This document shows, in pieces, positions 7,004-64,000 of a stretch of 64,000 nt of DNA. Source of the stretch: Candidatus Sungiibacteriota bacterium (GTDB lineage: Bacteria > Patescibacteriota > Minisyncoccia > Sungbacterales > HO2-52-23); the NCBI GenBank assembly GCA_016432465.1, contig CP066690.1, positions 122,702 through 186,701 on the forward strand, read 5' to 3'. Within the stretch, counting starts at the first letter, position 1, and every line of letters begins with the position of its first letter. The notes beneath the pieces are model-generated. The model saw nothing but the letters and a program-made list of their open reading frames with translations, was not told where the DNA came from and searched no databases. Position numbers and translations under genes: made by a program.

Positions 7004-8371
7004 TTAGGCAGGTTGGGAGCGCGTTTCAACCTTGCCGCCAAAAAACTCAAAAGAATTCAGTCCTCTCTCCCTAAGTCTTTGTAGAAGCTCCGTATAATTT
7101 TTGATAATTTGCTCCGGGGTCATACTTCTCCCCCAAGGAGTTTCTTCTTCATATACAAAAGTAAGTTGCGGCAGCTCGTCCCTGTACTTCCCGTGCTGAT
7201 GCATCATCTTTTTCCAGTCACGGAGCACTTCCCGAATACCAAATCTTTCCGGATGATTATAAACTTCTGTCCCCGGACGTAACGTAAAAATAGCCAAATA
7301 AACAAGGTCGGGTTGGGTTTCTTCAATAAAAGACCACGTTCGCTCCACAATGTCCTCTGGCTCTCCCGGAAGACCAATAATTAAATAGATCCTTGCCTCA
7401 ATGTCATTTTCTTTCAGCACCCTTATGGTGTTTTTAGCTCCTTCAACCGTGGTACGCTTGTTAATTATATCAAGCGATCTTTGCCAAACGCTCTCTACTC
7501 CCAAACCCATGGCCATGCATCCGCTTTGTCTGGCCAAAGCCGCAAGAGAGGACGTAATCCCATCCACACGACATTGCCCCCTCCAAACAATGCTGGTTCT
7601 GCCTATGGCTTCCAGATGACGCTGGGCCTGATCCTCTTTTAGGGGAAGAACGATTTCGTCCGAAAGCGACAAACCCTGAATTCCATATTGGGATTTAAGA
7701 TATTCTATTTCCTCTTCCACCCTTTCAGGGGCCCGATATCTTATACCGGGCACCTCAAGCCGCGCATACTCAATGGCGCAAAAATGACAGCGGTACGGAC
7801 ACCCCCTACTAAACATGGCCGTAGTGCCCAAAAGTTCTTCATAGCCCATTTTGTGTTTGAGATTCATAACACTCTTCCTTGCAGTTGCGCTAGCCGGAAG
7901 AAAATGTCTGCGCCAGTGAGGATAAATATTAATATCTACCGGTTTTGGGTCTCTATATATACGCTCTAGCCTCTGCCCCATGAAGTCTTCCAGCGCCTGA
8001 ATAACGGTTCGTTCTCCTTCGCCCAGAATTAAAGCATCAAATACCTCCAGTGACTCTTGAGTAAACATATTAGCATGCGGCCCGCCCGCAATGTGCCGCG
8101 CCCGGGGATAGTGACTGCGCAACGATTTCACTATGGAACATTGCTCTTCATAGTCCAGGGTATAAACAGAATGCAGATAAACATCGCACTCGGGAATGTG
8201 GTAGATGGCCGAGTCTCTTTTGATGCCGCGTAGATCAACTAATCTGGCCTCCACGTCGCGTCCGAAGTGATCCTCCAAAATGGTTAATAACTGAAAGTGA
8301 ACAAAGGGGTCCCCGCGAAAAGGGTCAAACAGATAGTCGCTCGACGGGAATATAAATCCTACCTCCAGCAT
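7004..8371 (-). CDS. B12-binding (cobalamin) radical SAM enzyme
   Basis: N-terminal B12-binding-like domain, then rSAM cluster SRGCPYRCHFCA. Confidence 0.7.
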   Translation of the reverse strand: MLEVGFIFPSSDYLFDPFRGDPFVHFQLLTILEDHFGRDVEARLVDLRGIKRDSAIYHIPECDVYLHSVYTLDYEEQCSIVKSLRSHYPRARHIAGGPHANMFTQESLEVFDALILGEGERTVIQALEDFMGQRLERIYRDPKPVDINIYPHWRRHFLPASATARKSVMNLKHKMGYEELLGTTAMFSRGCPYRCHFCAIEYARLEVPGIRYRAPERVEEEIEYLKSQYGIQGLSLSDEIVLPLKEDQAQRHLEAIGRTSIVWRGQCRVDGITSSLAALARQSGCMAMGLGVESVWQRSLDIINKRTTVEGAKNTIRVLKENDIEARIYLIIGLPGEPEDIVERTWSFIEETQPDLVYLAIFTLRPGTEVYNHPERFGIREVLRDWKKMMHQHGKYRDELPQLTFVYEEETPWGRSMTPEQIIKNYTELLQRLRERGLNSFEFFGGKVETRSQPA

Positions 8372-18899: not shown

Positions 18900-19044
18900 A
18901 CCAATACCTCCTCCATTTTTTAGGCGCTGTCTATTATGTATCAGTTACTTTACAAATTGTCAATCAACCCGTTTTCAGCGCTTTTATCCACGCACCAAAA
19001 GACCACGGGCTTGCCCGTGGAGCTTCATCTTTAAAAAGGAACTA

Positions 19045-19082
19045 GAACTTATGACTCGCGCCTAGGCGCGAGTCATAAGTTC
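19045..19082 (-). terminator. Perfect 17-3-17 palindrome overlapping the stop of the transketolase C-subunit gene; probable terminator or protein-binding site
   Basis: GAACTTATGACTCGCGCC-TAG-GCGCGAGTCATAAGTTC, followed on the minus strand by a T-rich stretch. An additional hairpin CCACGGGCttGCCCGTGG lies at 18999-19016. Confidence 0.45.
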
Positions 19083-19967
19083 TTTTACTTTTTTCATAAT
19101 GCGTTCCGGTGTGGGCGGCAGGTTATCAAGATGGGGCGCAAAACCCGCGGTGCGTTCCTCCAGACACAAAACATCAATCTTCTTTGAGCTTTGGCGCATA
19201 ATGTCAAAACCAATACACTTGGCCACGCCGTTTTCAAAATCGCCATCAATAATCAGCCCTCCATGGCGTGAACTCTCCAACGGCCCCAGAATCCGTTCGT
19301 CGGCAAGAAACGGCTTAAGCCAAAAGAGATGCACAATGTTTACTGCTATGCCCTCTTTAGCCAGTTCCTGCGCAGCCGCTATGGCATTAAGGCGGGTGGA
19401 AGAAATGGGGTAAAGTGTAACGTCGGCGTTGGGGTGCACCACGTCTTCCATTTCATAATCAATTTTAAAACTGGTGCGATGTTCGGATACATACATAGGA
19501 CTGTCATGCTCCATAAAAAAATCCCAAGCTTTTCGGTACTCTCCCGATGTCATAGGGGCTACAATAAATACTCCCGGCATACGCTCAAACATTCCATGAT
19601 GACTCCCGGAAGCCACAGGACCCATTCCTCCGTCCATACCAATAGAGCGGACAAAAAGAGGACAGGGAATTCCCCAAAGTTCTTTTGACTTGGCGGCATA
19701 ATTAGCTATGTGCGCAGCATTAAACCACTGAAATCCCTGATAGCGCACGATATATATGGGCCGTCGGCCTGCTAGAGCATAGCCAACCGCAATTCCGCCC
19801 CCAGACACATCGGCCATGGCAAGCTCTACGATGCCCTCTTCCACCGTCATTTCGGGTACTGTTCCGCCCACCCAGCCAACAGCCGTAAGACACTGCCCCA
19901 AAGCAACACCGTTGTTTTCTTTCAGGTGCTTACGCGTTATTTCCCTGATAGTTTCTGCTGAAGTCAT
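19062..19967 (-). CDS. Transketolase-family C-terminal (pyrimidine-binding plus C-terminal domain) subunit
   Basis: Similar to the split transketolase / E1-beta layout. Adjacent to the TPP-binding N-terminal subunit gene. Confidence 0.65.
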   Translation of the reverse strand: MTSAETIREITRKHLKENNGVALGQCLTAVGWVGGTVPEMTVEEGIVELAMADVSGGGIAVGYALAGRRPIYIVRYQGFQWFNAAHIANYAAKSKELWGIPCPLFVRSIGMDGGMGPVASGSHHGMFERMPGVFIVAPMTSGEYRKAWDFFMEHDSPMYVSEHRTSFKIDYEMEDVVHPNADVTLYPISSTRLNAIAAAQELAKEGIAVNIVHLFWLKPFLADERILGPLESSRHGGLIIDGDFENGVAKCIGFDIMRQSSKKIDVLCLEERTAGFAPHLDNLPPTPERIMKKVKELMTRA

Positions 19968-25781: not shown

Positions 25782-25789
25782 TTTGGTAA

Positions 25790-25970
25790 AAATCCTATTA
25801 TCTCTGGCAGAATACCTCGCGGCTTTGCCGCGAGGATGAATGCCAGCCCGGAGTCCCGGCTTGCCGGGACGGAGGAGATAACCCCGACGGTGTCGTCCGA
25901 TTTCAGGACGCGTATTCCATCAGGAATACCGCGCAGCTTGGGAAGTCAGACTTCCCTTGCTGCGCGGTCG
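25790..25970. repeat. Intergenic cluster of GC-rich hairpins including a GGGAAGTCaGACTTCCC palindrome module
   Basis: Hairpins CCTCGCGGCtttGCCGCGAGG, GTCCCGGCttGCCGGGAC and GCGCAGCttGGGAAGTCAGACTTCCCttGCTGCGC. The last one shares the GGGAAGTCnGACTTCCC core with the 120-bp element and with 45794-45810. Confidence 0.4.
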
Positions 25971-25971
25971 G

Positions 25972-55229: not shown

Positions 55230-58200
55230 TTATCCTTCACTGGCGCAAACGCGGAGCACCTGTTGATATGCCGCAACATAAGATTCCCAGCCCCGATGAG
55301 GAAGTTGCTTTATCTTCTCTTCGGCCGCATGCGCCAAGTAACTACGTAATTCTTTATCCTGATAAAGTCGAAGGAGTGCCTTGAGAAATTGTTTTTTGTC
55401 ACCCACTGGCACCACTAATCCATTCTCTCCATTGTGCACCACCTCCCCCGCCAAACCTACGTCAGTCATAAGAATGGGTAGAGAAGCGGCCATGGCTTCT
55501 ATAATAACCCGCCCCCACCCCTCATAATTTGATGATAAAACAAAGAGATCAAAAGATTTATAAAACGACGGTAGATCATCACGCCACGGCTCAATAAAAA
55601 CGTTTTTGTCTAATCCGTAATTTCTAATTTGTAATCTGTAGTTGTCTCTATCGGGCCCGTCTCCCACCAACACTAAAAGCGTCTTGGGGTACATCTTCGT
55701 CAAATTCCGCATCAACTCAATAAGCATGGAAAAGTTTTTTTCTTTATCTACGAAACGCCCCACACTTACTATTTTAAATTCGTAGTCCCAAAAACGCTCC
55801 TCGGTTTTAGGATCTCTATCGGAATTAAGAAATTTAGAAATGTCGGTAAAGATAGGCAAAACCGTAATTTTATCTTCGGTGGCAAGTCCTGCCTCCTTTA
55901 AAGAACTTTTAATACGTTCCGAAACTACTCTAATACGGCTTGCTCTGGGTATCAAGAATTTAACCATGAGATATCTAGTAAATTCTTTTAAGGAGGCCTT
56001 CCTGTACCACGGGCTTAAAATATCAGTATGCACTTGAAGCTGAAAGGGCTGCCCAAAACGCCTGCTAAGAAGCCACGCCACCATCCCCTCTTCAAACGGA
56101 TTTTCAGAGCTTATCACCCAACGGCCGCGTCGCTGGAGCAGCCGTGCTCCTTCTTTATAAAGAAGGTACCACGACAAAAGCTTACTGGAGTGAATCGGAC
56201 GTAAAACCAAAGTACCCTCCTTCATAGCAGGCAGCTTATGATGGCTGCGGCAAAGAACATGAAATGAAGAAAATGGTTCGGCGTAAAATTGCGCCCTTTC
56301 CCGAAGCGGAGAATTATGTTGAAAAATACTCTCATCCGTGCCGATGGTTAAAATATTTAACCCCGCGGGCGGCCCGATAATCTTTTTAAAAAGTGAGATC
56401 CAGTCCTCTGCAACTTCTTTCCACAGTCTCACTGTCAAGACTGACTTAATGGTCCCTACCGTATCTTTCTTGGCCAACATCACTAACTTTTGGGCAATAT
56501 CGTCTTCAGACAACGGATTTACCAGTACTGCGCTATCGCCCACGTATTCTTTTAAGCCGGACTCCTGCGTCATAACAAATGGTGTCCCCAGTGCCCAAGC
56601 TTCAGCGATAACATTGGGCCCAACATCAGAAAAAGATGGCAGTAAAAATACGGACGCCTCCTGGATTTTTTTAAGAAGTGGGTCATGCGGTACTGGCGTT
56701 AAAAATTTGACTCTGGAAATTTTGTTTTCCTTTACAAACTCCTGCAACCTTTCTTTTTCAGGACCATCACCTACTAAATGAAGTTCATAATCACGCAGGC
56801 CCGATTTGGTAAAAGCGCGGATCAGACGGTAAAGATTCTTCAAATAAAGCATCCTTCCTGCCCATAGGATAACGGGTTTCCGGGTTAATCCTGCGCTGGC
56901 TCCCATTTGCTCCTGTACATTTTGGACAATAGCCGTCTTATTTTTGTCTAAACCATAGGCCTGCTCCACCATTTTCCTGCGCCAATCAGAAGAAAATACC
57001 AACGCATCGGCCCTGTGCATAACCCAGCTACTAATAAATTTTATAACACGCTCTTTCCAGGACAGAGGCATAGGAAGCGTATAAAACTGCGGAAGGGTAA
57101 CATCATTTCGGGTCCTCTCCACAAAAGATTCCCACAGAAAATCGCCTTCCAATCTAATGACCAGCGGCTTTTTATACAAAAAGGATATCAGGGCTGCCGG
57201 CGCTCCCACGCTGAAATAGTCCAAGGAAAAAATTAAATCAGCGTTTTTGGCTCGCTTAACGAGCGAAAGCAAATAAAAAAGATGACGAATCAGGGTTGGG
57301 TATTTTAAAAAGCGGCCAAAAGAAACTACCGAGACGCCGAGGCCTTGCGAGCGAAACTCACGGGAAAGATTCTCGGCATAAAGCGCCGGGCCTCCAAGTT
57401 GAGGAGGGTAAAGAGGTGTAGCAATCAGAAGACGGGTACGAGCTATGTTTTGTGAAAATACGTTTTGATATTTTTGGGCTATGACGTCCCATAAAAAGCG
57501 CTCCTTTATCATTCGTCTTCCATCCTCCACCATTTTTTGCGCTAAAATTTTTTCATCCAAAAGAAACCGGATTTTGGCCGCAAGATCAAGATGATCATCC
57601 ACTTTGACAAAAAGACCGGTTGCTCCGTCTTTGATAATATCCGTTATGCCGCCTACAGCCGTACCAATTATGGGAAGACCCGCGGCCAACGCCTCTATGA
57701 ACGAGATGCCCATGCCTTCGGAACGAGAGGGACGGACAAAAACGTCGGCTTCATGAAGATATTCGGGTATCTTCTCATGCGGGATTTCACCGAAAAATTT
57801 AATATCAGCTTGTAGCTTGCCCGCTCCGCCGGAGCTTGAGCGAGGCGAGTAGCTTGTCCCTAGGCTCTTTGAGCCGGGATCCCGGCCACTTTGTGGCCTA
57901 GGGATAGCTTGTAGCTCAAGATTTTTACGCTCTGGACCGTCGCCGATAATCCAACATTGAACATTAGGAATGGCTTTTTTCACTTCTGCCATTGCCCGAA
58001 TCAAAATATCAATTCCGTTTTTTGGCACCAACCGTGAGGTCGTAATGATGGTAGAAGCAGATTTACGCAAATAGCTATGCGGATTTGCGCGGATATCATT
58101 TCTAAATTTCTCTGCGTCAACGCCGTTATGAATGATCTCTCCCGGTCCCCTATATCCATAACTTCTTGCCAGATTCAAAAGATAAGTAGAGATTGCCGTT

Positions 58201-58664
58201 ACGTAATCGGCCTGCCAAAGAATAAAACGAAAGGCCGCATTTATCGCGCCAAACCGTCCAGAAGCAAGCCGAGCATCCCCTTCCCCGTATTGAATGTTCA
58301 AAATAAAAGGAATTCGGGGATGAAATAACTTATAAATTGCCGCCGTAACAGAGGCATGCGAAATATCCACCCCCACTACCGCACTTGGACACGGCGTGTC
58401 CAAGTTGGACGTTAGGCACCAGAACGGCAGAAGGTATTTATCAAACCGGGAGCCGAATCCGGCTCTTATAATTTTTACGCCCTGATAGGAATCCTCACGC
58501 GGTAAGTCTTTTTTGAATCTGGAAGTTACAATATAAAAATCGAAGCGGTCTTTTAACCGCCTGCAAACCTCCGCTATGGCAATCTCCGCTCCACCAATAA
58601 ACGGGTGGTAGGAGGTAGTAAATACAAAAACTTTTGGCTTCATTGCATTAAAGACAGAAATCAT
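55230..58664 (-). CDS. Giant multidomain glycosyltransferase: three tandem GT4 (GT-B) modules in one 1144-aa polypeptide
   Basis: Three successive GT4-like units, each with its own N-terminal sugar-acceptor half and C-terminal E-x7-E region. The first unit carries an in-frame palindromic insertion at 57806-57918. Confidence 0.65.
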   Translation of the reverse strand: MISVFNAMKPKVFVFTTSYHPFIGGAEIAIAEVCRRLKDRFDFYIVTSRFKKDLPREDSYQGVKIIRAGFGSRFDKYLLPFWCLTSNLDTPCPSAVVGVDISHASVTAAIYKLFHPRIPFILNIQYGEGDARLASGRFGAINAAFRFILWQADYVTAISTYLLNLARSYGYRGPGEIIHNGVDAEKFRNDIRANPHSYLRKSASTIITTSRLVPKNGIDILIRAMAEVKKAIPNVQCWIIGDGPERKNLELQAIPRPQSGRDPGSKSLGTSYSPRSSSGGAGKLQADIKFFGEIPHEKIPEYLHEADVFVRPSRSEGMGISFIEALAAGLPIIGTAVGGITDIIKDGATGLFVKVDDHLDLAAKIRFLLDEKILAQKMVEDGRRMIKERFLWDVIAQKYQNVFSQNIARTRLLIATPLYPPQLGGPALYAENLSREFRSQGLGVSVVSFGRFLKYPTLIRHLFYLLSLVKRAKNADLIFSLDYFSVGAPAALISFLYKKPLVIRLEGDFLWESFVERTRNDVTLPQFYTLPMPLSWKERVIKFISSWVMHRADALVFSSDWRRKMVEQAYGLDKNKTAIVQNVQEQMGASAGLTRKPVILWAGRMLYLKNLYRLIRAFTKSGLRDYELHLVGDGPEKERLQEFVKENKISRVKFLTPVPHDPLLKKIQEASVFLLPSFSDVGPNVIAEAWALGTPFVMTQESGLKEYVGDSAVLVNPLSEDDIAQKLVMLAKKDTVGTIKSVLTVRLWKEVAEDWISLFKKIIGPPAGLNILTIGTDESIFQHNSPLRERAQFYAEPFSSFHVLCRSHHKLPAMKEGTLVLRPIHSSKLLSWYLLYKEGARLLQRRGRWVISSENPFEEGMVAWLLSRRFGQPFQLQVHTDILSPWYRKASLKEFTRYLMVKFLIPRASRIRVVSERIKSSLKEAGLATEDKITVLPIFTDISKFLNSDRDPKTEERFWDYEFKIVSVGRFVDKEKNFSMLIELMRNLTKMYPKTLLVLVGDGPDRDNYRLQIRNYGLDKNVFIEPWRDDLPSFYKSFDLFVLSSNYEGWGRVIIEAMAASLPILMTDVGLAGEVVHNGENGLVVPVGDKKQFLKALLRLYQDKELRSYLAHAAEEKIKQLPHRGWESYVAAYQQVLRVCASEG
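57806..57918. mobile_element. About 100-bp GC-rich palindromic element inserted in frame in the first GT4 module, flanked by 11-bp direct repeats
   Basis: Direct repeats AGCTTGTAGCT at 57807-57817 and 57907-57917. Nested palindromes CCCTAGGC..GCCGGGATCCCGGC..GCCTAGGG and GCTCCGccGGAGC. Encodes an extra Ser/Gly/Pro-rich segment of about 35 aa (IPRPQSGRDPGSKSLGTSYSPRSSSGGAG) between conserved GT4 blocks. Confidence 0.5.
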
Positions 58665-62932: not shown

Positions 62933-63982
62933 CTACTTATCAACACCACTATTATCTGCCTGCGCCTCAAGAAGTACAAGATACTGCCCGGAGAAAGGAA
63001 TGGTTAAGCCCGGCTGTGCGGTATTTTTAAGATACGGACGGGGCATAATCAAGAAATACGGCGGCCTGAATCCCATTTTAAGACTCTCGCGCTCCACCCG
63101 CTCAATATATTTTCTGCCGCTATAATAATAGATAGTATCAAAAGAGCTCCAATCAAAACTGTAAAGCGCATGCCCCTGATCATTCTTTTTTATAAAAAGG
63201 CCTATTTCTTTCTCCTCTTTCGCATAAGGATAAGAGTAGGGAACGTTGGAAATAAAAAGCTGATAATAGGTGCTTAGCGCCCCCAAAAGCAGAAGAGCCG
63301 CAAAAACCGCAACTACGGCATAGCGTCCGGTGATACTTTGACGAATACTCCGATACCAAACTCCCCCTAGTGAGGACACTAACATACCTTCAAAAGGAAA
63401 CAACGGAATAAGGTAAAAAATGAGCTTGGTGCGGGATATGGCAAAGGTAATAAAAATAAAAAGTGCGGAGAAGAGAGAGGCCAGCGCCAACCGGCGTTCC
63501 GGAAGCTGACCCAAACGTCTCCAAAAAATCCAAAGGCCGCCACCGATAGCCGCCAGAAACCAGGGCTCGTTCAAAAGCAAAAGTTGTTTTAAATAACTCC
63601 GGGTCGTAACCGATCCTCCCAGTATCGGAGCGGCAACACGTTCAAAGACATGACGCACAAGATACACGTCCCAAAAATCCTTGCCAAACTTTATGCTCTC
63701 ACGCAGGTGCCAGGGCAGGATAATGATTAAAAAAATTATAGTCCCCAGCCAGAAGTACCAATCTCTAAGCCAGCGCCATTCTTTATACACTGCGCTAAAT
63801 ATCAAAATCACCGGCACTAAAAGCAGCGCCGGAAAACTGCGCAGCATCACTCCGATACCAAGAAAGAACCAAAATGGAGCCCAACGGGCAAGCCCGTGGT
63901 ACCCATTCTTTACGGTCAAGCCTGATGGCTTGCCTGCTGGGGCGGAATCCCGCCCCAGAAAACCGCATTCATCCACGGGCAA
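62933..63982 (-). CDS. Polytopic membrane protein, possibly GT-C fold (ArnT/PMT-like) glycosyltransferase; start uncertain
   Basis: Many TM helices, then a soluble C-terminal domain of about 100 aa. The reading frame is still open at the window end. An alternative start is the Met at 63847; GC-rich hairpins (CTGGGGCGGaatCCCGCCCCAG, CCACGGGCaaaCCCGTGG) at 63925-63990 may be non-coding. Confidence 0.35.
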   Translation of the reverse strand: MPVDECGFLGRDSAPAGKPSGLTVKNGYHGLARWAPFWFFLGIGVMLRSFPALLLVPVILIFSAVYKEWRWLRDWYFWLGTIIFLIIILPWHLRESIKFGKDFWDVYLVRHVFERVAAPILGGSVTTRSYLKQLLLLNEPWFLAAIGGGLWIFWRRLGQLPERRLALASLFSALFIFITFAISRTKLIFYLIPLFPFEGMLVSSLGGVWYRSIRQSITGRYAVVAVFAALLLLGALSTYYQLFISNVPYSYPYAKEEKEIGLFIKKNDQGHALYSFDWSSFDTIYYYSGRKYIERVERESLKMGFRPPYFLIMPRPYLKNTAQPGLTIPFSGQYLVLLEAQADNSGVDK

Positions 63983-64000
63983 ACCCGTGGTCTTCTGGGG

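Follow-up and report, generated by a model that had tools for sequence, protein, structure and literature searches.

Two small hairpin-forming modules inserted in frame in a Patescibacteria glycosyltransferase gene, one of them linked to a GIY-YIG nuclease gene and tRNA-Gln

In-frame small palindromic repeats in essential genes are best known from Rickettsia, whose RPEs are ~150 bp long and confined to that group. To our knowledge, the spread of RPE-type repeats has never been pinned to an enzyme, and we know of no link between RPEs and a nuclease or a tRNA gene. REP/BIME sequences, short G+C-rich imperfect palindromes that occur alone or in clusters, have a single dedicated gene of the small nuclease type as their partner. 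This partner is an IS200/IS605-like Y1 (RAYT) transposase gene, and an extragenic location is part of the definition of a REP. A MITE, by definition, descends from a transposase-encoding IS and has target-site duplications of fixed length, the G+C clusters of yeast mitochondria have an AG target with duplication, and homing endonucleases have long asymmetric sites in intron-less or intein-less alleles, not small palindromes.

RPEs have been described as small palindromic repeats of a reduced-genome bacterium that lie in frame in unrelated, often essential genes, encode a conserved peptide and are apparently compatible with the protein fold, and bacterial MITEs (Correia/NEMIS, ERIC, BOX, Nezha and others) as short structured sequences, non-autonomous and present in many copies, which end in inverted repeats and at times give in-frame fusions (PMC10969869). 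The yeast mitochondrial G+C clusters and the double-hairpin or repetitive hairpin-forming elements of fungal and sponge mitochondria are short G+C-rich hairpins, single or double, in A+T-richer compact genomes. Alone or in tandem, they lie between genes, within rRNA genes and, now and then, within a protein gene such as var1; the transcript retains them, their stems are conserved, and they have short preferred target nucleotides (PMC2800124; PMC4478555). In CPR bacteria, GIY-YIG-carrying insertions unlike group I or group II introns lie in rRNA genes, and many short (<200 bp) uncharacterised ORF-less insertions lie in structural RNA genes (Tsurumaki et al. 2024, PMC11270868). UPF0213 proteins are a prokaryotic group related to Slx1 (PMC1564403), and Slx1 is described as cutting branched DNA, including four-way junctions.

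The 99-bp insert and its empty site

The host gene (Table 1) lies in the window, i.e., the whole 64-kb stretch of DNA that was analysed, and encodes a protein of three GT4 glycosyltransferase modules; the insert sits in module 1, in its C-terminal Rossmann half. Counted as the spacing of two perfect 11-bp direct repeats, the insert is 99 bp long (33 codons), with 88 bp between the repeat copies, and it contributes the 33 residues IPRPQSGRDPGSKSLGTSYSPRSSSGGAGKLQA between ...GDGPERKNLELQA and DIKFFGEIPHEK. As the original prediction had it, the 1144-aa ORF remains open across the insert, all of the proposed palindromes are present in the insert, and the added residues form a Ser/Gly/Pro-rich linker; its true length is 33 residues rather than the ~35 suggested. 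The perfect repeats bounding the insert and the position of the first copy were likewise correct, and the second copy had been placed one nucleotide off. The G+C content of the segment was 63%, as against 46.7% for the whole window, and its predicted folding was more stable than that of shuffled sequences (RNA z = -4.35, DNA z = -4.0; 0/200 shuffles equally good); few other 100-nt stretches of the window are as highly structured. A "120-bp element", also mentioned in the prediction, was not confidently identified: the sole candidate in the GT4 gene was an 18-nt inverted repeat at 55891-55997, which is single-copy and lies within ordinary GT4 coding sequence, judging by its translation.

Table 1. 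Positions of the host gene, the modules, the repeats and the palindromes in the window
Feature	Position	Strand	Sequence	Basis or remark
Host gene, 1144-aa protein	55230..58664	minus		ORF list and translation; Pfam Glycos_transf_1, Glyco_transf_4 and related families
Direct repeat, copy 1	57807..57817		AGCTTGTAGCT; gene strand AGCTACAAGCT	encodes (K)LQA; holds target 7-mer copy 1, TTGTAGC, at 57810-57816
Module B flanks	57817-57819; 57850-57853		TTG; TAGC	
Module B, imperfect hairpin, 30 nt (31 nt counting G57819)	57820..57849	minus	gene strand CTCGCCTCGCTCAAGCTCCGGCGGAGCGGG(C)	encodes SPRSSSGGAG
Palindrome	57823-57835		GCTCCGCCGGAGC	
Internal junction 7-mer	57850..57856		TAGCTTG	TAGC, right half of one interrupted copy; TTG, left half of the next
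Module A, 48 nt, double-hairpin or four-way-junction element	57857..57904		TCCCTAGG-CTCTTTGAG-CCGGGATCCCGG-CCACTTTGTGG-CCTAGGGA	gene strand read (I)PRPQSGRDPGSKSLG(T)
Module A, hairpin unit 1	57857..57879		TCCC-TA-GG-CTCTTTGAG-CC-GGGA	predicted minimum-energy fold (DNA here; RNA in many other copies)
Palindrome	57858-57865		CCCTAGGC	
Palindrome	57873-57886		GCCGGGATCCCGGC	
Module A, hairpin unit 2	57880..57904		TCCC-GG-CCACTTTGTGG-CC-TA-GGGA	fold prediction and compensatory closing pair
Palindrome	57896-57903		GCCTAGGG	
TAGC	57905-57908		TAGC	right half of interrupted target 7-mer copy 3
Direct repeat, copy 2	57906..57916		AGCTTGTAGCT	holds target 7-mer copy 4 (57909-57915)

The closest ortholog (P0001), encoded on a syntenic contig (L001), showed a clean 33-residue gap at the insert in a BLASTP alignment. 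The DNA of this contig at the empty site reads CTTGAGCTACAAGCT and then AACGCT, with 82% identity to the window over the 120 nt around it; the 11-mer occurs there once, which answers a check proposed with the original prediction. The window and the syntenic ortholog thus carry the filled and empty alleles of one site with a precise junction, showing that the segment is an insertion, as had been predicted. None of 120 homologues carried the segment, so a native lineage-specific linker of the enzyme is not supported, and such a linker, or an assembly artefact, is extremely improbable as an explanation. The intact frame and the Ser/Gly/Pro-rich composition would be typical of a linker, but the syntenic ortholog lacks the segment as well, both halves belong to repeat families found in independent assemblies and metagenomes, and the segment stands out from the gene in its G+C content and folding; nor would an artefact be expected to keep the frame or to lie between exactly duplicated copies of the empty-site sequence. 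The two modules of the insert, described below, would have arrived in the gene once its lineage had separated from that of assembly GCA_964372945.1. In an AlphaFold model of the protein (pLDDT 90 overall), residues 253 to 283 formed a coil, with pLDDT <50 at 264-273 and 275-277; for the insert this predicts a disordered surface loop of 33 residues between a helix and a strand of the Rossmann domain. A loop of this kind would be tolerable for the enzyme.

Two modules and a shared 7-bp target

Two small G+C-rich modules that form hairpins, A and B, make up the insert, in place of the one element of ~100 bp originally envisaged; the two are unrelated and each recurs alone elsewhere. No second copy of either module was found in the 64-kb window by blastn-short or by covariance-model search, and a protein search with a 40-residue composite peptide gave no candidate, so the A+B composite was not seen in other proteins. 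Exact string decomposition revealed the 7-mer TTGTAGC four times at the insert, two of the copies being interrupted at TTG^TAGC, and both modules sit at this same point of the same 7-bp target. The added pieces amount to 48 + 30 + 21 = 99 nt, and since each is a multiple of three the frame is kept. Successive events with 7-nt duplications would put each intermediate out of frame. The 11-mer AGCTTGTAGCT occurs exactly twice in the 64-kb window, and a partial third copy (82%), overlooked in the original prediction, lies at 57851-57861.

A degenerate-pattern search of GTDB species genomes gave 34 loci for module A, ~26 of them in low-G+C contigs that are mostly from Patescibacteria; a few carrier contigs were labelled as non-CPR bins (Pirellulales, Gammaproteobacteria, and Armatimonadota). 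The window copy was the sole copy in the window and the top-scoring match of the covariance model R1 (65.9 bits). The length of the module ranged from 42 to 56 nt in the family, and all of the 25 aligned copies had the ends TCCCTAGG ... CCTAGGGA, which are 8-bp terminal inverted repeats; the 88-bp composite as a whole has none. TC preceded and G followed the search pattern in 25/25 aligned copies, although the pattern did not demand either, and the motifs CCTAGG and CCGGGAYCCCGG were invariant across very distant lineages. Among the contigs retrieved there were two or three copies per genome, with hairpin sequences that differed within a genome. Many copies were located within about 100 nt of tRNA genes. 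Module A was absent from the viral contigs searched. Rfam 15 gave no meaningful match in 57500-58200 at E up to 10, nothing at the gathering score in the whole window, and only tRNAs in 20 loci of the module A family, and no published description of the family was found in the literature on CPR in-frame palindromes, CCTAGG elements, and GIY-YIG proteins with palindromic repeats.

The hairpins of module A covary. Pairing was observed in 96.8% of the alignment cells (99% for helix 1 across the family), two-sided changes occurred in 59-69 cells as against 20-24 in shuffles, with 0/500 shuffles reaching the observed value, and the signal collapsed once the pairing partners were slid. In 15 copies the closing pair of unit 2 (alignment columns 34 and 63) was U-A, and in 10 it was C-G; this compensatory change favours the double hairpin, a fold that recurs in the family. 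The ten GACC-type copies behind this pair may stem from one single change. Module A can also be drawn as a four-way junction without unpaired junction bases; we rejected the view that the stable fold is a strict cloverleaf or four-way junction, as this was never the predicted minimum-energy structure and lay 4-15 kcal/mol above it.

Module A lies within seven long ORFs, namely GT4, DnaE-, GspE-, CHASE2/cyclase-, MiaA-, and MurB-like ORFs and one unnamed; for MurB and MiaA, comparison with solved homologues shows the module to be inserted. In 7/7 of these coding copies the core length was divisible by three and the peptide read PR...LG, whereas non-coding copies spanned all length classes (Fisher p = 0.005), showing that the coding copies are filtered by length and frame. 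Module B, searched with a 22-mer of its sequence, was present in eight metagenome contigs of differing contexts, six of which had the full 31 nt; the shared stretch was 26 nt in L039 and L042 and 30 nt in L043. It is read in frame as SPRSSSGGAG four times, in the GT4 gene and in ACS-, UvrA-, and GyrB-like ORFs (named by reading of their translations). No recurrent protein was found near module B. Hairpins related to it exist, and a B-like hairpin was seen in four G+C-rich viral contigs. Both modules are repeated palindromic elements that lie in frame in several unrelated protein genes with a conserved peptide, and they recur within essential genes (MurB, MiaA, and DnaE-, GspE-, UvrA-, and GyrB-like). 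Tandem arrays were present in L011 and L037. The proposal that structured elements colonise coding sequence was thus borne out, and beyond this locus too.

It is quite unlikely that A and B are host-useful RNA or DNA motifs, acting for instance in processing, termination or stability near tRNA genes, of which the GT4 copy would be an accidental, neutral transfer by recombination. The covariation would then reflect selection on pairing, and the position of many copies near tRNA genes and the deep conservation would fit, though hairpin sequences differ within one genome. On the other hand, seven unrelated protein genes contain copies, as do fragments of tRNA pseudogenes that the element interrupts, either orientation works, the copies are sometimes upstream and sometimes downstream of genes, a match in Rfam is absent, and the length and frame filtering of the coding copies resembles that of a tolerated parasite rather than of a functional part.

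Flank-versus-flank local alignment of 23 module A copies gave no direct repeat for most of them (p > 0.1), which led us to reject target-site duplication as a family-wide trait. The repeats of the few copies having them were 7 to 12 nt or more in length, the MurB copy was core-only, and the flanks of module B shared no repeat. Because flanking direct repeats are not a trait of either family, the target-site duplication originally suggested as one source of the 11-bp repeats is, in its transposase-type form, not the best reading. The corresponding account, a single classical MITE of ~88 bp moved by a DDE-type transposase that duplicates 11 bp of its target, is very unlikely: it would account for the perfection of the 11-bp repeats, for their exact position at the ends of the insert and for the single copy at the empty site, and it is in keeping with the terminal inverted repeats of module A, but the 88 bp between the repeats split into two modules found separately elsewhere and lack such repeats of their own, a third target copy lies between the modules, and no transposase is recurrent near the family.

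A GIY-YIG nuclease gene and tRNA-Gln beside module A

Module A is linked to a nuclease gene and tRNA-Gln. A ~85-aa GIY-YIG gene (PF01541, E 1e-13 to 1e-17) was located no more than about 100 nt from A, or from an A-like element, at nine of the 25 A-selected loci; module A adjoins this gene or is split by it, and tRNA-Gln then follows directly. In the reciprocal search from the nuclease protein, four of five independent contexts (68-77% identity) had module A (54-60 bits) and an overlapping tRNA-Gln, and the fifth (53% identity) had neither. Fragments of a split tRNA-Gln flank the nuclease unit, and the two acceptor halves match. These longer units share the ends of module A yet encode a GIY-YIG nuclease and tRNA-Gln and no known transposase. 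Several of the called nuclease ORFs run on through module A or the tRNA. The solved structures nearest to the GIY-YIG protein were the UPF0213 proteins 1zg2 and 1ywl (BH0048 and EF2693). No DDE, serine or tyrosine transposase was recurrent near module A, and the recurrent neighbour was GIY-YIG (PF01541), not Y1_Tnp (RAYT). The window copy is solitary and ORF-less, and tblastn found no GIY-YIG gene in the 64-kb window. We know of no GIY-YIG protein that is a transposase and of no activity for this ~85-aa subfamily; the association could instead make A the landing site of the nuclease gene.

TAG or CTA abuts module A in 7/26 copies (p about 1e-5), i.e., in about a quarter of the copies only, and insertion points before TAG or TAA were found in tRNA-Gln D-arms (GG^TAGGAC and GTC^TAATGG) and at G^TAGC in the GT4 gene. 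As an explanation of the whole, we favour with moderate confidence an A+B composite inserted after the lineage split at TTG^TAGC, with A coming from the nuclease-linked family. Module A is here a solitary ORF-less copy of a family found mostly in Patescibacteria, whose longer members bear a UPF0213/Slx1-like GIY-YIG gene beside or inside the second hairpin, followed by tRNA-Gln, in units that interrupt older tRNA-Gln genes. We infer that the GIY-YIG nuclease may act in trans to make the break, with A then copied in from another copy by a homing-like or microhomology-guided repair. If sites that precede TAG or TAA are preferred, as those in tRNA D-arms do, this would explain the hit on this gene, whose site G^TAGCTCA appears to resemble tRNA positions 7 to 14, and the extra 7-mers may be by-products of repair or the result of successive hits on the same target.

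The junctions themselves could also be ascribed to templated insertion, in which template switching during replication or microhomology-mediated repair, with no dedicated element enzyme, copied hairpin repeats from other places in the genome into a site that had stalled or broken, via TTG, TAGC, and AGCT, and slippage gave the 7-mers. The same 3-4-nt microhomologies at every junction, the small quasi-palindrome formed by the target AGCTACAAGCT, the CAAGCT contained in the loop of B, the varying lengths of the direct repeats where present, and the window without a nuclease gene would all agree with it. We nevertheless regard it as unlikely, as it leaves unexplained both the invariant CCTAGG and CCGGGAYCCCGG across very distant lineages and the tight reciprocal link to GIY-YIG and tRNA-Gln. 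Templated insertion is compatible with the favoured nuclease-linked origin as the repair step after a nuclease cut. A wider reading of that origin is plausible but tentative: module A may be the miniature form of an undescribed class of bacterial mobile elements, whose autonomous copies, with conserved double-hairpin ends able to form a four-way junction, a ~85-aa Slx1/UPF0213-like GIY-YIG gene and a spare tRNA-Gln, would invade tRNA-Gln genes. Its ORF-less derivatives would be mobilised in trans and would have spread among Patescibacteria, entering intergenic DNA, tRNA pseudogenes and, with the frame kept, essential protein genes.

Comparison with described systems

The best reading of the insert is a colonisation of coding DNA like that by the RPEs of Rickettsia, and probably a nuclease-driven one. 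Comparable in-frame repeats are now seen in Patescibacteria, a very large and poorly understood group with tiny genomes. The signature of module A and its reproducible link to the nuclease and tRNA-Gln make the question of mobility testable, as it comes down to a single small protein, a DNA of 48 nt and a defined set of candidate targets, and if the wider reading is true, it would provide a CPR counterpart of the RPEs with an identifiable enzyme. Such inserts enlarge and diversify CPR proteins and can mislead gene callers and domain annotation, and the modules may explain part of the unexplained short insertions in CPR RNA genes.

Compared with REP sequences and their RAYT genes, module A differs in that the associated gene is GIY-YIG and that seven copies are intragenic. 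It is similar to homing units in having a nuclease ORF inside or beside the element, which holds for the family but not for the window copy. The likeness to free-standing GIY-YIG proteins and Slx1 consists in the stand-alone GIY-YIG domain of the neighbouring protein and in the four-way junction as which A can be drawn, although that form was never its predicted minimum-energy fold. Module A shares terminal inverted repeats with the MITEs, whereas neither descent from a transposase-encoding IS nor a duplication of fixed length was seen for A or B. With the mitochondrial hairpin elements it shares the double hairpin, and the tandem arrangement known from them was seen in L011 and L037; those elements have organelle hosts, however, and A has no consistent duplication and has TAG or TAA as its preferred flank. 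We know of no sequence relationship between the mitochondrial elements and module A.

By description, the insertions in CPR rRNA genes are similar in that a nuclease-bearing unit and ORF-less A occur in tRNA-Gln genes of the same host group, whereas no sequence motif, palindromic end structure or copies in protein genes were reported for those insertions (PMC11270868). The RPEs differ from the present modules in size (42-56 nt for A and 30/31 nt for B), in host, which is here a member of the Patescibacteria as judged from its protein neighbours, and in the tie of A to a GIY-YIG gene and tRNA-Gln. The likeness to the RPEs, again by description, is that A encodes PR...LG in at least seven genes and B encodes SPRSSSGGAG in at least four, and that the insert is predicted to form a surface loop.

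Structure of the insert and its empty site in an ortholog

The insert in the triple-GT4 glycosyltransferase gene was confirmed to be bounded by perfect direct repeats, the 11-mer occurring twice at a spacing of 99 bp (33 codons), with the second copy lying one base away from the position first assigned to it. Every palindrome named in the original prediction was found in the insert, whose G+C content is 63%, against 46.7% window-wide. The insert folded much better than shuffled sequence (RNA z = -4.35, DNA z = -4.0) and ranked with the most structured stretches across the 64 kb. The reading frame is preserved as proposed, the ORF remaining open through the insert, which adds IPRPQSGRDPGSKSLGTSYSPRSSSGGAGKLQA. 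In a confident AlphaFold model (50-sequence alignment, pLDDT 90.3), the insert region is predicted as coil at residues 253-283, between a helix (246-252) and a strand (288-292), with pLDDT <50 at residues 264-273 and 275-277; on this model, the insert is read as a disordered surface loop tolerated by the enzyme.

Searches with GT4 module 1 as the query returned Patescibacteria-type GT4 proteins, with a top identity of 55%. The closest homologue, P0001, reads GDGPERKSLELQANAKFLGEIPHEK at the insert site, and BLASTP against it left a single clean gap of 33 residues. P0001 is encoded on contig L001 (GCA_964372945.1), which shows synteny with the window at 57.6-61.9 kb and 82% identity over 120 nt around the site, where the L001 DNA reads CTT GAG CTA CAA GCT AAC, that is, one 11-mer without the insert. 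The question raised earlier, whether the 11-mer is single-copy where the insert is absent, was thus answered affirmatively in a syntenic contig, favoring insertion. That the segment is a linker native to the enzyme, or an artefact of assembly, is very improbable, as it occurs in none of the 120 best module 1 matches aligned and the syntenic L001 is an empty site. These data demonstrate that the segment was inserted, the ortholog having a clean empty site.

Coordinates of the features in the window and in the contigs fetched for comparison
Feature	Contig	Position	Strand	Remarks
Host GT4 gene	window	55230-58664	minus	1144 residues, three GT4 modules
11-mer AGCTTGTAGCT	window	57807-57817 and 57906-57916		sole two occurrences in window
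Module B	window	57820-57849		30/31-nt hairpin
Module A	window	57857-57904		48-nt double hairpin
Covariance model match	window	57853-57908		single window copy
18-nt inverted repeat	window	55891-55908 / 55980-55997		89% complementary, 71 nt apart, in GT4 module 3 of host gene
Multi-hairpin stretch	window	63871-63998		about 130 nt, right end; 82% identity to L005 7810-7947 (Saccharibacteria)
41-nt piece of that stretch	window	18982-19022		93% identity
CCACGGGCTTGCCCGTGG hairpin	window	19003-19020		directly precedes palindrome
40-nt perfect palindrome AGAACTTATGACTCGCGCCTAGGCGCGAGTCATAAGTTCT	window	19044-19083		centre CCTAGG; between two minus-strand ORFs
Hairpin-filled gap	window	25782-25971		190 bp, between two minus-strand ORFs
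Module A in long ORF	L006			DnaE-like (name from translation)
Module A in long ORF	L020			GspE-like (name from translation)
Module A in long ORF	L021			CHASE2/cyclase-like (name from translation)
Module A in long ORF	L023			MiaA
Module A in long ORFs	L030 and L034 (MurB)
Module A and tRNA-Pro	L005	1630-1760
Five B-like hairpins	L037	about 7630-7760	minus	CTCGCC-loop-GGCGAAGC and similar
Over-extended GIY-YIG ORF	L010	3000-3470
Over-extended GIY-YIG ORF	L011	2719-3330
Over-extended GIY-YIG ORF	L029	6260-6840
Over-extended GIY-YIG ORF	L031	3549-4100
Over-extended GIY-YIG ORF	L048	1500-1960

Two recurring hairpin families

The insert is not the single element originally described, being a composite of two modules, A and B, each from a recurring family. 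A scan of GTDB species genomes with only the pattern CCTAGG ... CCGGGNNCCCGG ... CCTAGG returned 34 loci for module A. About 26 were on low-G+C contigs, mostly labelled Saccharibacteria, Yanofsky-, Wolfe-, Moran-, Harrison-, Buchanan-, Nomura- or Paceibacteria, with 2-3 copies each in several genomes; the other loci, on G+C-rich contigs, lacked the additional features of module A. TC 5' and G 3' of the pattern were present in 25/25 aligned copies, though the pattern required neither, and the two variable stretches are self-complementary in every copy while differing in sequence among copies. In the pair count, 96.8% of cells were paired, and 59-69 cells were changed on both sides, compared with 20-24 for the shuffles (0/500 as high), a signal that was lost once the partners were slid by 1-3 columns. 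These data demonstrate that hairpin pairing in module A is under selection. A signal useful to the host, at the RNA or DNA level, is an unlikely explanation of the repeats. When the alignment was turned into a covariance model, the window copy was the top match overall.

The pairs are compatible with a four-way junction without unpaired junction bases or with two tandem hairpins (YCCC-TA-GG-X-CC-GGGA, then YCCC-GG-Y-CC-TA-GGGR). The former was the predicted minimum-energy fold in no copy, and the latter was a recurrent predicted minimum. Linked T-to-C and A-to-G differences in ten copies are a compensatory U-A to C-G change in the tandem-hairpin drawing, and may represent one common ancestral change. 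Carriers binned outside CPR were L003 and L028 (labelled Pirellulales), L013 (Gammaproteobacteria) and L014 (Armatimonadota), of which L003, L028 and L013 have a low G+C content (38-43%), and L003 and L013 also have the GIY-YIG/tRNA arrangement described below; either the binning of these contigs is wrong or the host range is broader.

Several copies of module A lie within long ORFs (table), adding about 13 residues to MurB (core alone) and about 41 to MiaA relative to solved structures. The TC...GA core length is divisible by three in 7/7 coding copies, including that of the window, all of which use the only stop-free frame, giving PR...LG; the non-coding copies fall into all three length classes (Fisher p = 0.005 versus coding), and the bias therefore reflects filtering of insertions by selection.

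For module B, a 22-mer taken from the insert outside module A matched 8 metagenome contigs. A 31-nt hairpin, CTCGCCTCGCTCAAGCTCCGGCGGAGCGGGC, is identical in 6/8 of them, in unrelated contexts, with partial sharing of 26 nt in L039 and L042 and 30 nt in L043. ORFs resembling ACS, UvrA and GyrB contain module B in frame, where it encodes SPRSSSGGAG. Shorter related hairpins exist, including a tandem array in L037 that is in frame within a UvrA-like 889-aa ORF and encodes ...SPYGEAGSPHGEAGLPAGKVSLPRGGADSPRSSSGGAG... A near-identical B-like hairpin, CTCGCCTCGCTGAAGCTCCGGCGAAGC(GGGC), was present in the IMG/VR viral contigs L044-L047 (67-68% G+C); therefore, module B or a look-alike is not restricted to Patescibacteria.

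Other hairpins were observed in the window. The multi-hairpin stretch at its right end contains CCACGGG-loop-CCCGTGG hairpins and GGGGCGGGATTCCGCCCC, has no Rfam match, and could represent a small RNA not yet known or a third family of shared repeats. The 40-nt palindrome is the most stable local fold of the window. The hairpin-filled gap contains successive G+C-rich hairpins (CCTCGCGGCTTTGCCGCGAGG, CCCGGCTTGCCGGG and GCGCAGC...GCTGCGC), with no tRNA or Rfam family. The 18-nt inverted repeat, which is single-copy, may be the 120-bp element of the original prediction; judged from its translation, it appears to be ordinary GT4 coding sequence rather than an insert. CTAG is strongly depleted window-wide (57 observed, about 245 expected from base composition), and CCTAGG occurs 5 times (about 13 expected), 2/5 within module A.

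Direct repeats and a 7-bp target

The direct repeats had been taken as consistent with a target-site duplication or with duplication-mediated insertion. Flanking repeats were absent from most of 23 module A copies, and module B flanks had nothing in common among copies, so that they are not a trait of either family. The reading as a classical MITE, which would have duplicated 11 bp, is improbable: module A copies show no target-site duplication of constant length, and no transposase recurs near them. The window plus strand reads exactly CAGC / TTGTAGC / TTG [B] TAGC / TTG [A] TAGC / TTGTAGC / TCAAG, and the empty site CAGC / TTGTAGC / TCAAG. Four copies of TTGTAGC are thus present, two of them split at one and the same bond, and the 11-mer repeat arises as a consequence. 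The added pieces (48, 30 and 3 x 7 = 21 nt) are each divisible by three. This arrangement, known from one allele, may reflect a series of hits on targets that had been duplicated, entry of the modules into a 7-mer array that was already expanded, or a single copying event guided by microhomology. Enzyme-independent template switching as the source of the insert is unlikely, if the least improbable of the alternatives weighed.

TAG, or CTA at the opposite side, directly abuts module A in 7/26 copies (p about 1e-5), in agreement with the positions at which tRNA D-arms are interrupted. The likeness of the gene site G^TAGCTCA to tRNA positions 7-14 is suggestive only.

A GIY-YIG nuclease, tRNA genes and known systems

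When every ORF surrounding module A was clustered, a single small protein recurred, at nine loci. This protein consists of a free-standing GIY-YIG domain (PF01541, E 1e-13 to 1e-17). Among solved structures, it is most closely related to the UPF0213 proteins 1zg2 and 1ywl, members of the prokaryotic Slx1-like group (PMC1564403), and its gene lies at most about 100 nt from module A or a weaker A-like match. Reciprocally, relatives of the nuclease were gathered by protein similarity alone and their contigs fetched, giving five independent contexts. In the four at 68-77% identity, module A lay beside the nuclease gene (54-60 bits, 4/4) and a tRNA-Gln overlapped the 3' end of that gene (4/4); the fifth (53% identity, adjoining a tyrosine recombinase gene) had neither. 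These results demonstrate a link between module A, the nuclease gene and tRNA-Gln. The 64-kb window has no GIY-YIG gene, its module A copy being solitary, and no tRNA gene or Rfam family.

Upstream of the nuclease ORF, a 5' tRNA-Gln fragment is interrupted by module A at GG^TAGGAC (L002, L050) or GTC^TAATGG (L051, L054). In L010, L011, L029 and L031, the ATG comes within about 5-7 nt after one full hairpin unit and CCGGGGTCCCGG, whereas L048 has only a CCGGGTCCCGG remnant ahead of it. The ORF is followed by a complete tRNA-Gln, CYTAGGGA and the remainder of the older tRNA-Gln, whose acceptor halves match each other (TCGGGGA / TCCCCGA in L031). From this fragment order and these matching halves, it follows that the second hairpin of a module A element accommodates the nuclease gene together with a spare tRNA-Gln, and that this element interrupts a tRNA-Gln gene. 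The called ORFs run on upstream through module A (...APRS.SDRGPG...) and downstream through the tRNA-Gln gene (...AAGSSNGRT...); therefore, the 109-130-residue database nucleases are probably proteins of about 85 residues plus translated element and tRNA. In L005, module A lies between a duplicated 5' tRNA-Pro fragment (GGGCCGTAGTATACCGG) and an intact tRNA-Pro gene sharing a 12-nt exact repeat, GTAGTATACCGG, with a GIY-YIG gene ending 55 nt upstream; the tRNA association therefore extends beyond tRNA-Gln. In L003, the tRNA partner is tRNA-Cys.

We propose that the nuclease, acting in trans, would cut at or beside TAR-containing sites or at module A, and that repair would copy in the element from another locus. 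Module B would share this route or have arrived by template switching.

The insert is a real case of coding-tolerant palindromic repeats, known in kind and richer than first described, and the module family has an unusual, testable link to an enzyme. No account of the module A motif or of in-frame palindromic inserts in CPR was found in the literature searched. REP/RAYT identity was rejected, the recurrent neighbour gene being GIY-YIG and not Y1, and seven copies being intragenic. Non-intron insertions encoding GIY-YIG proteins occur in rRNA genes of this host group, as do many short ORF-less insertions (PMC11270868), and these may be related to the module A system. The element differs from a MITE in the two respects mentioned; its nearest analogue in behavior is the Rickettsia palindromic element (PMC10969869), and in architecture it comes nearest to mitochondrial G+C clusters and double-hairpin elements from fungi and sponges (PMC2800124, PMC4478555).
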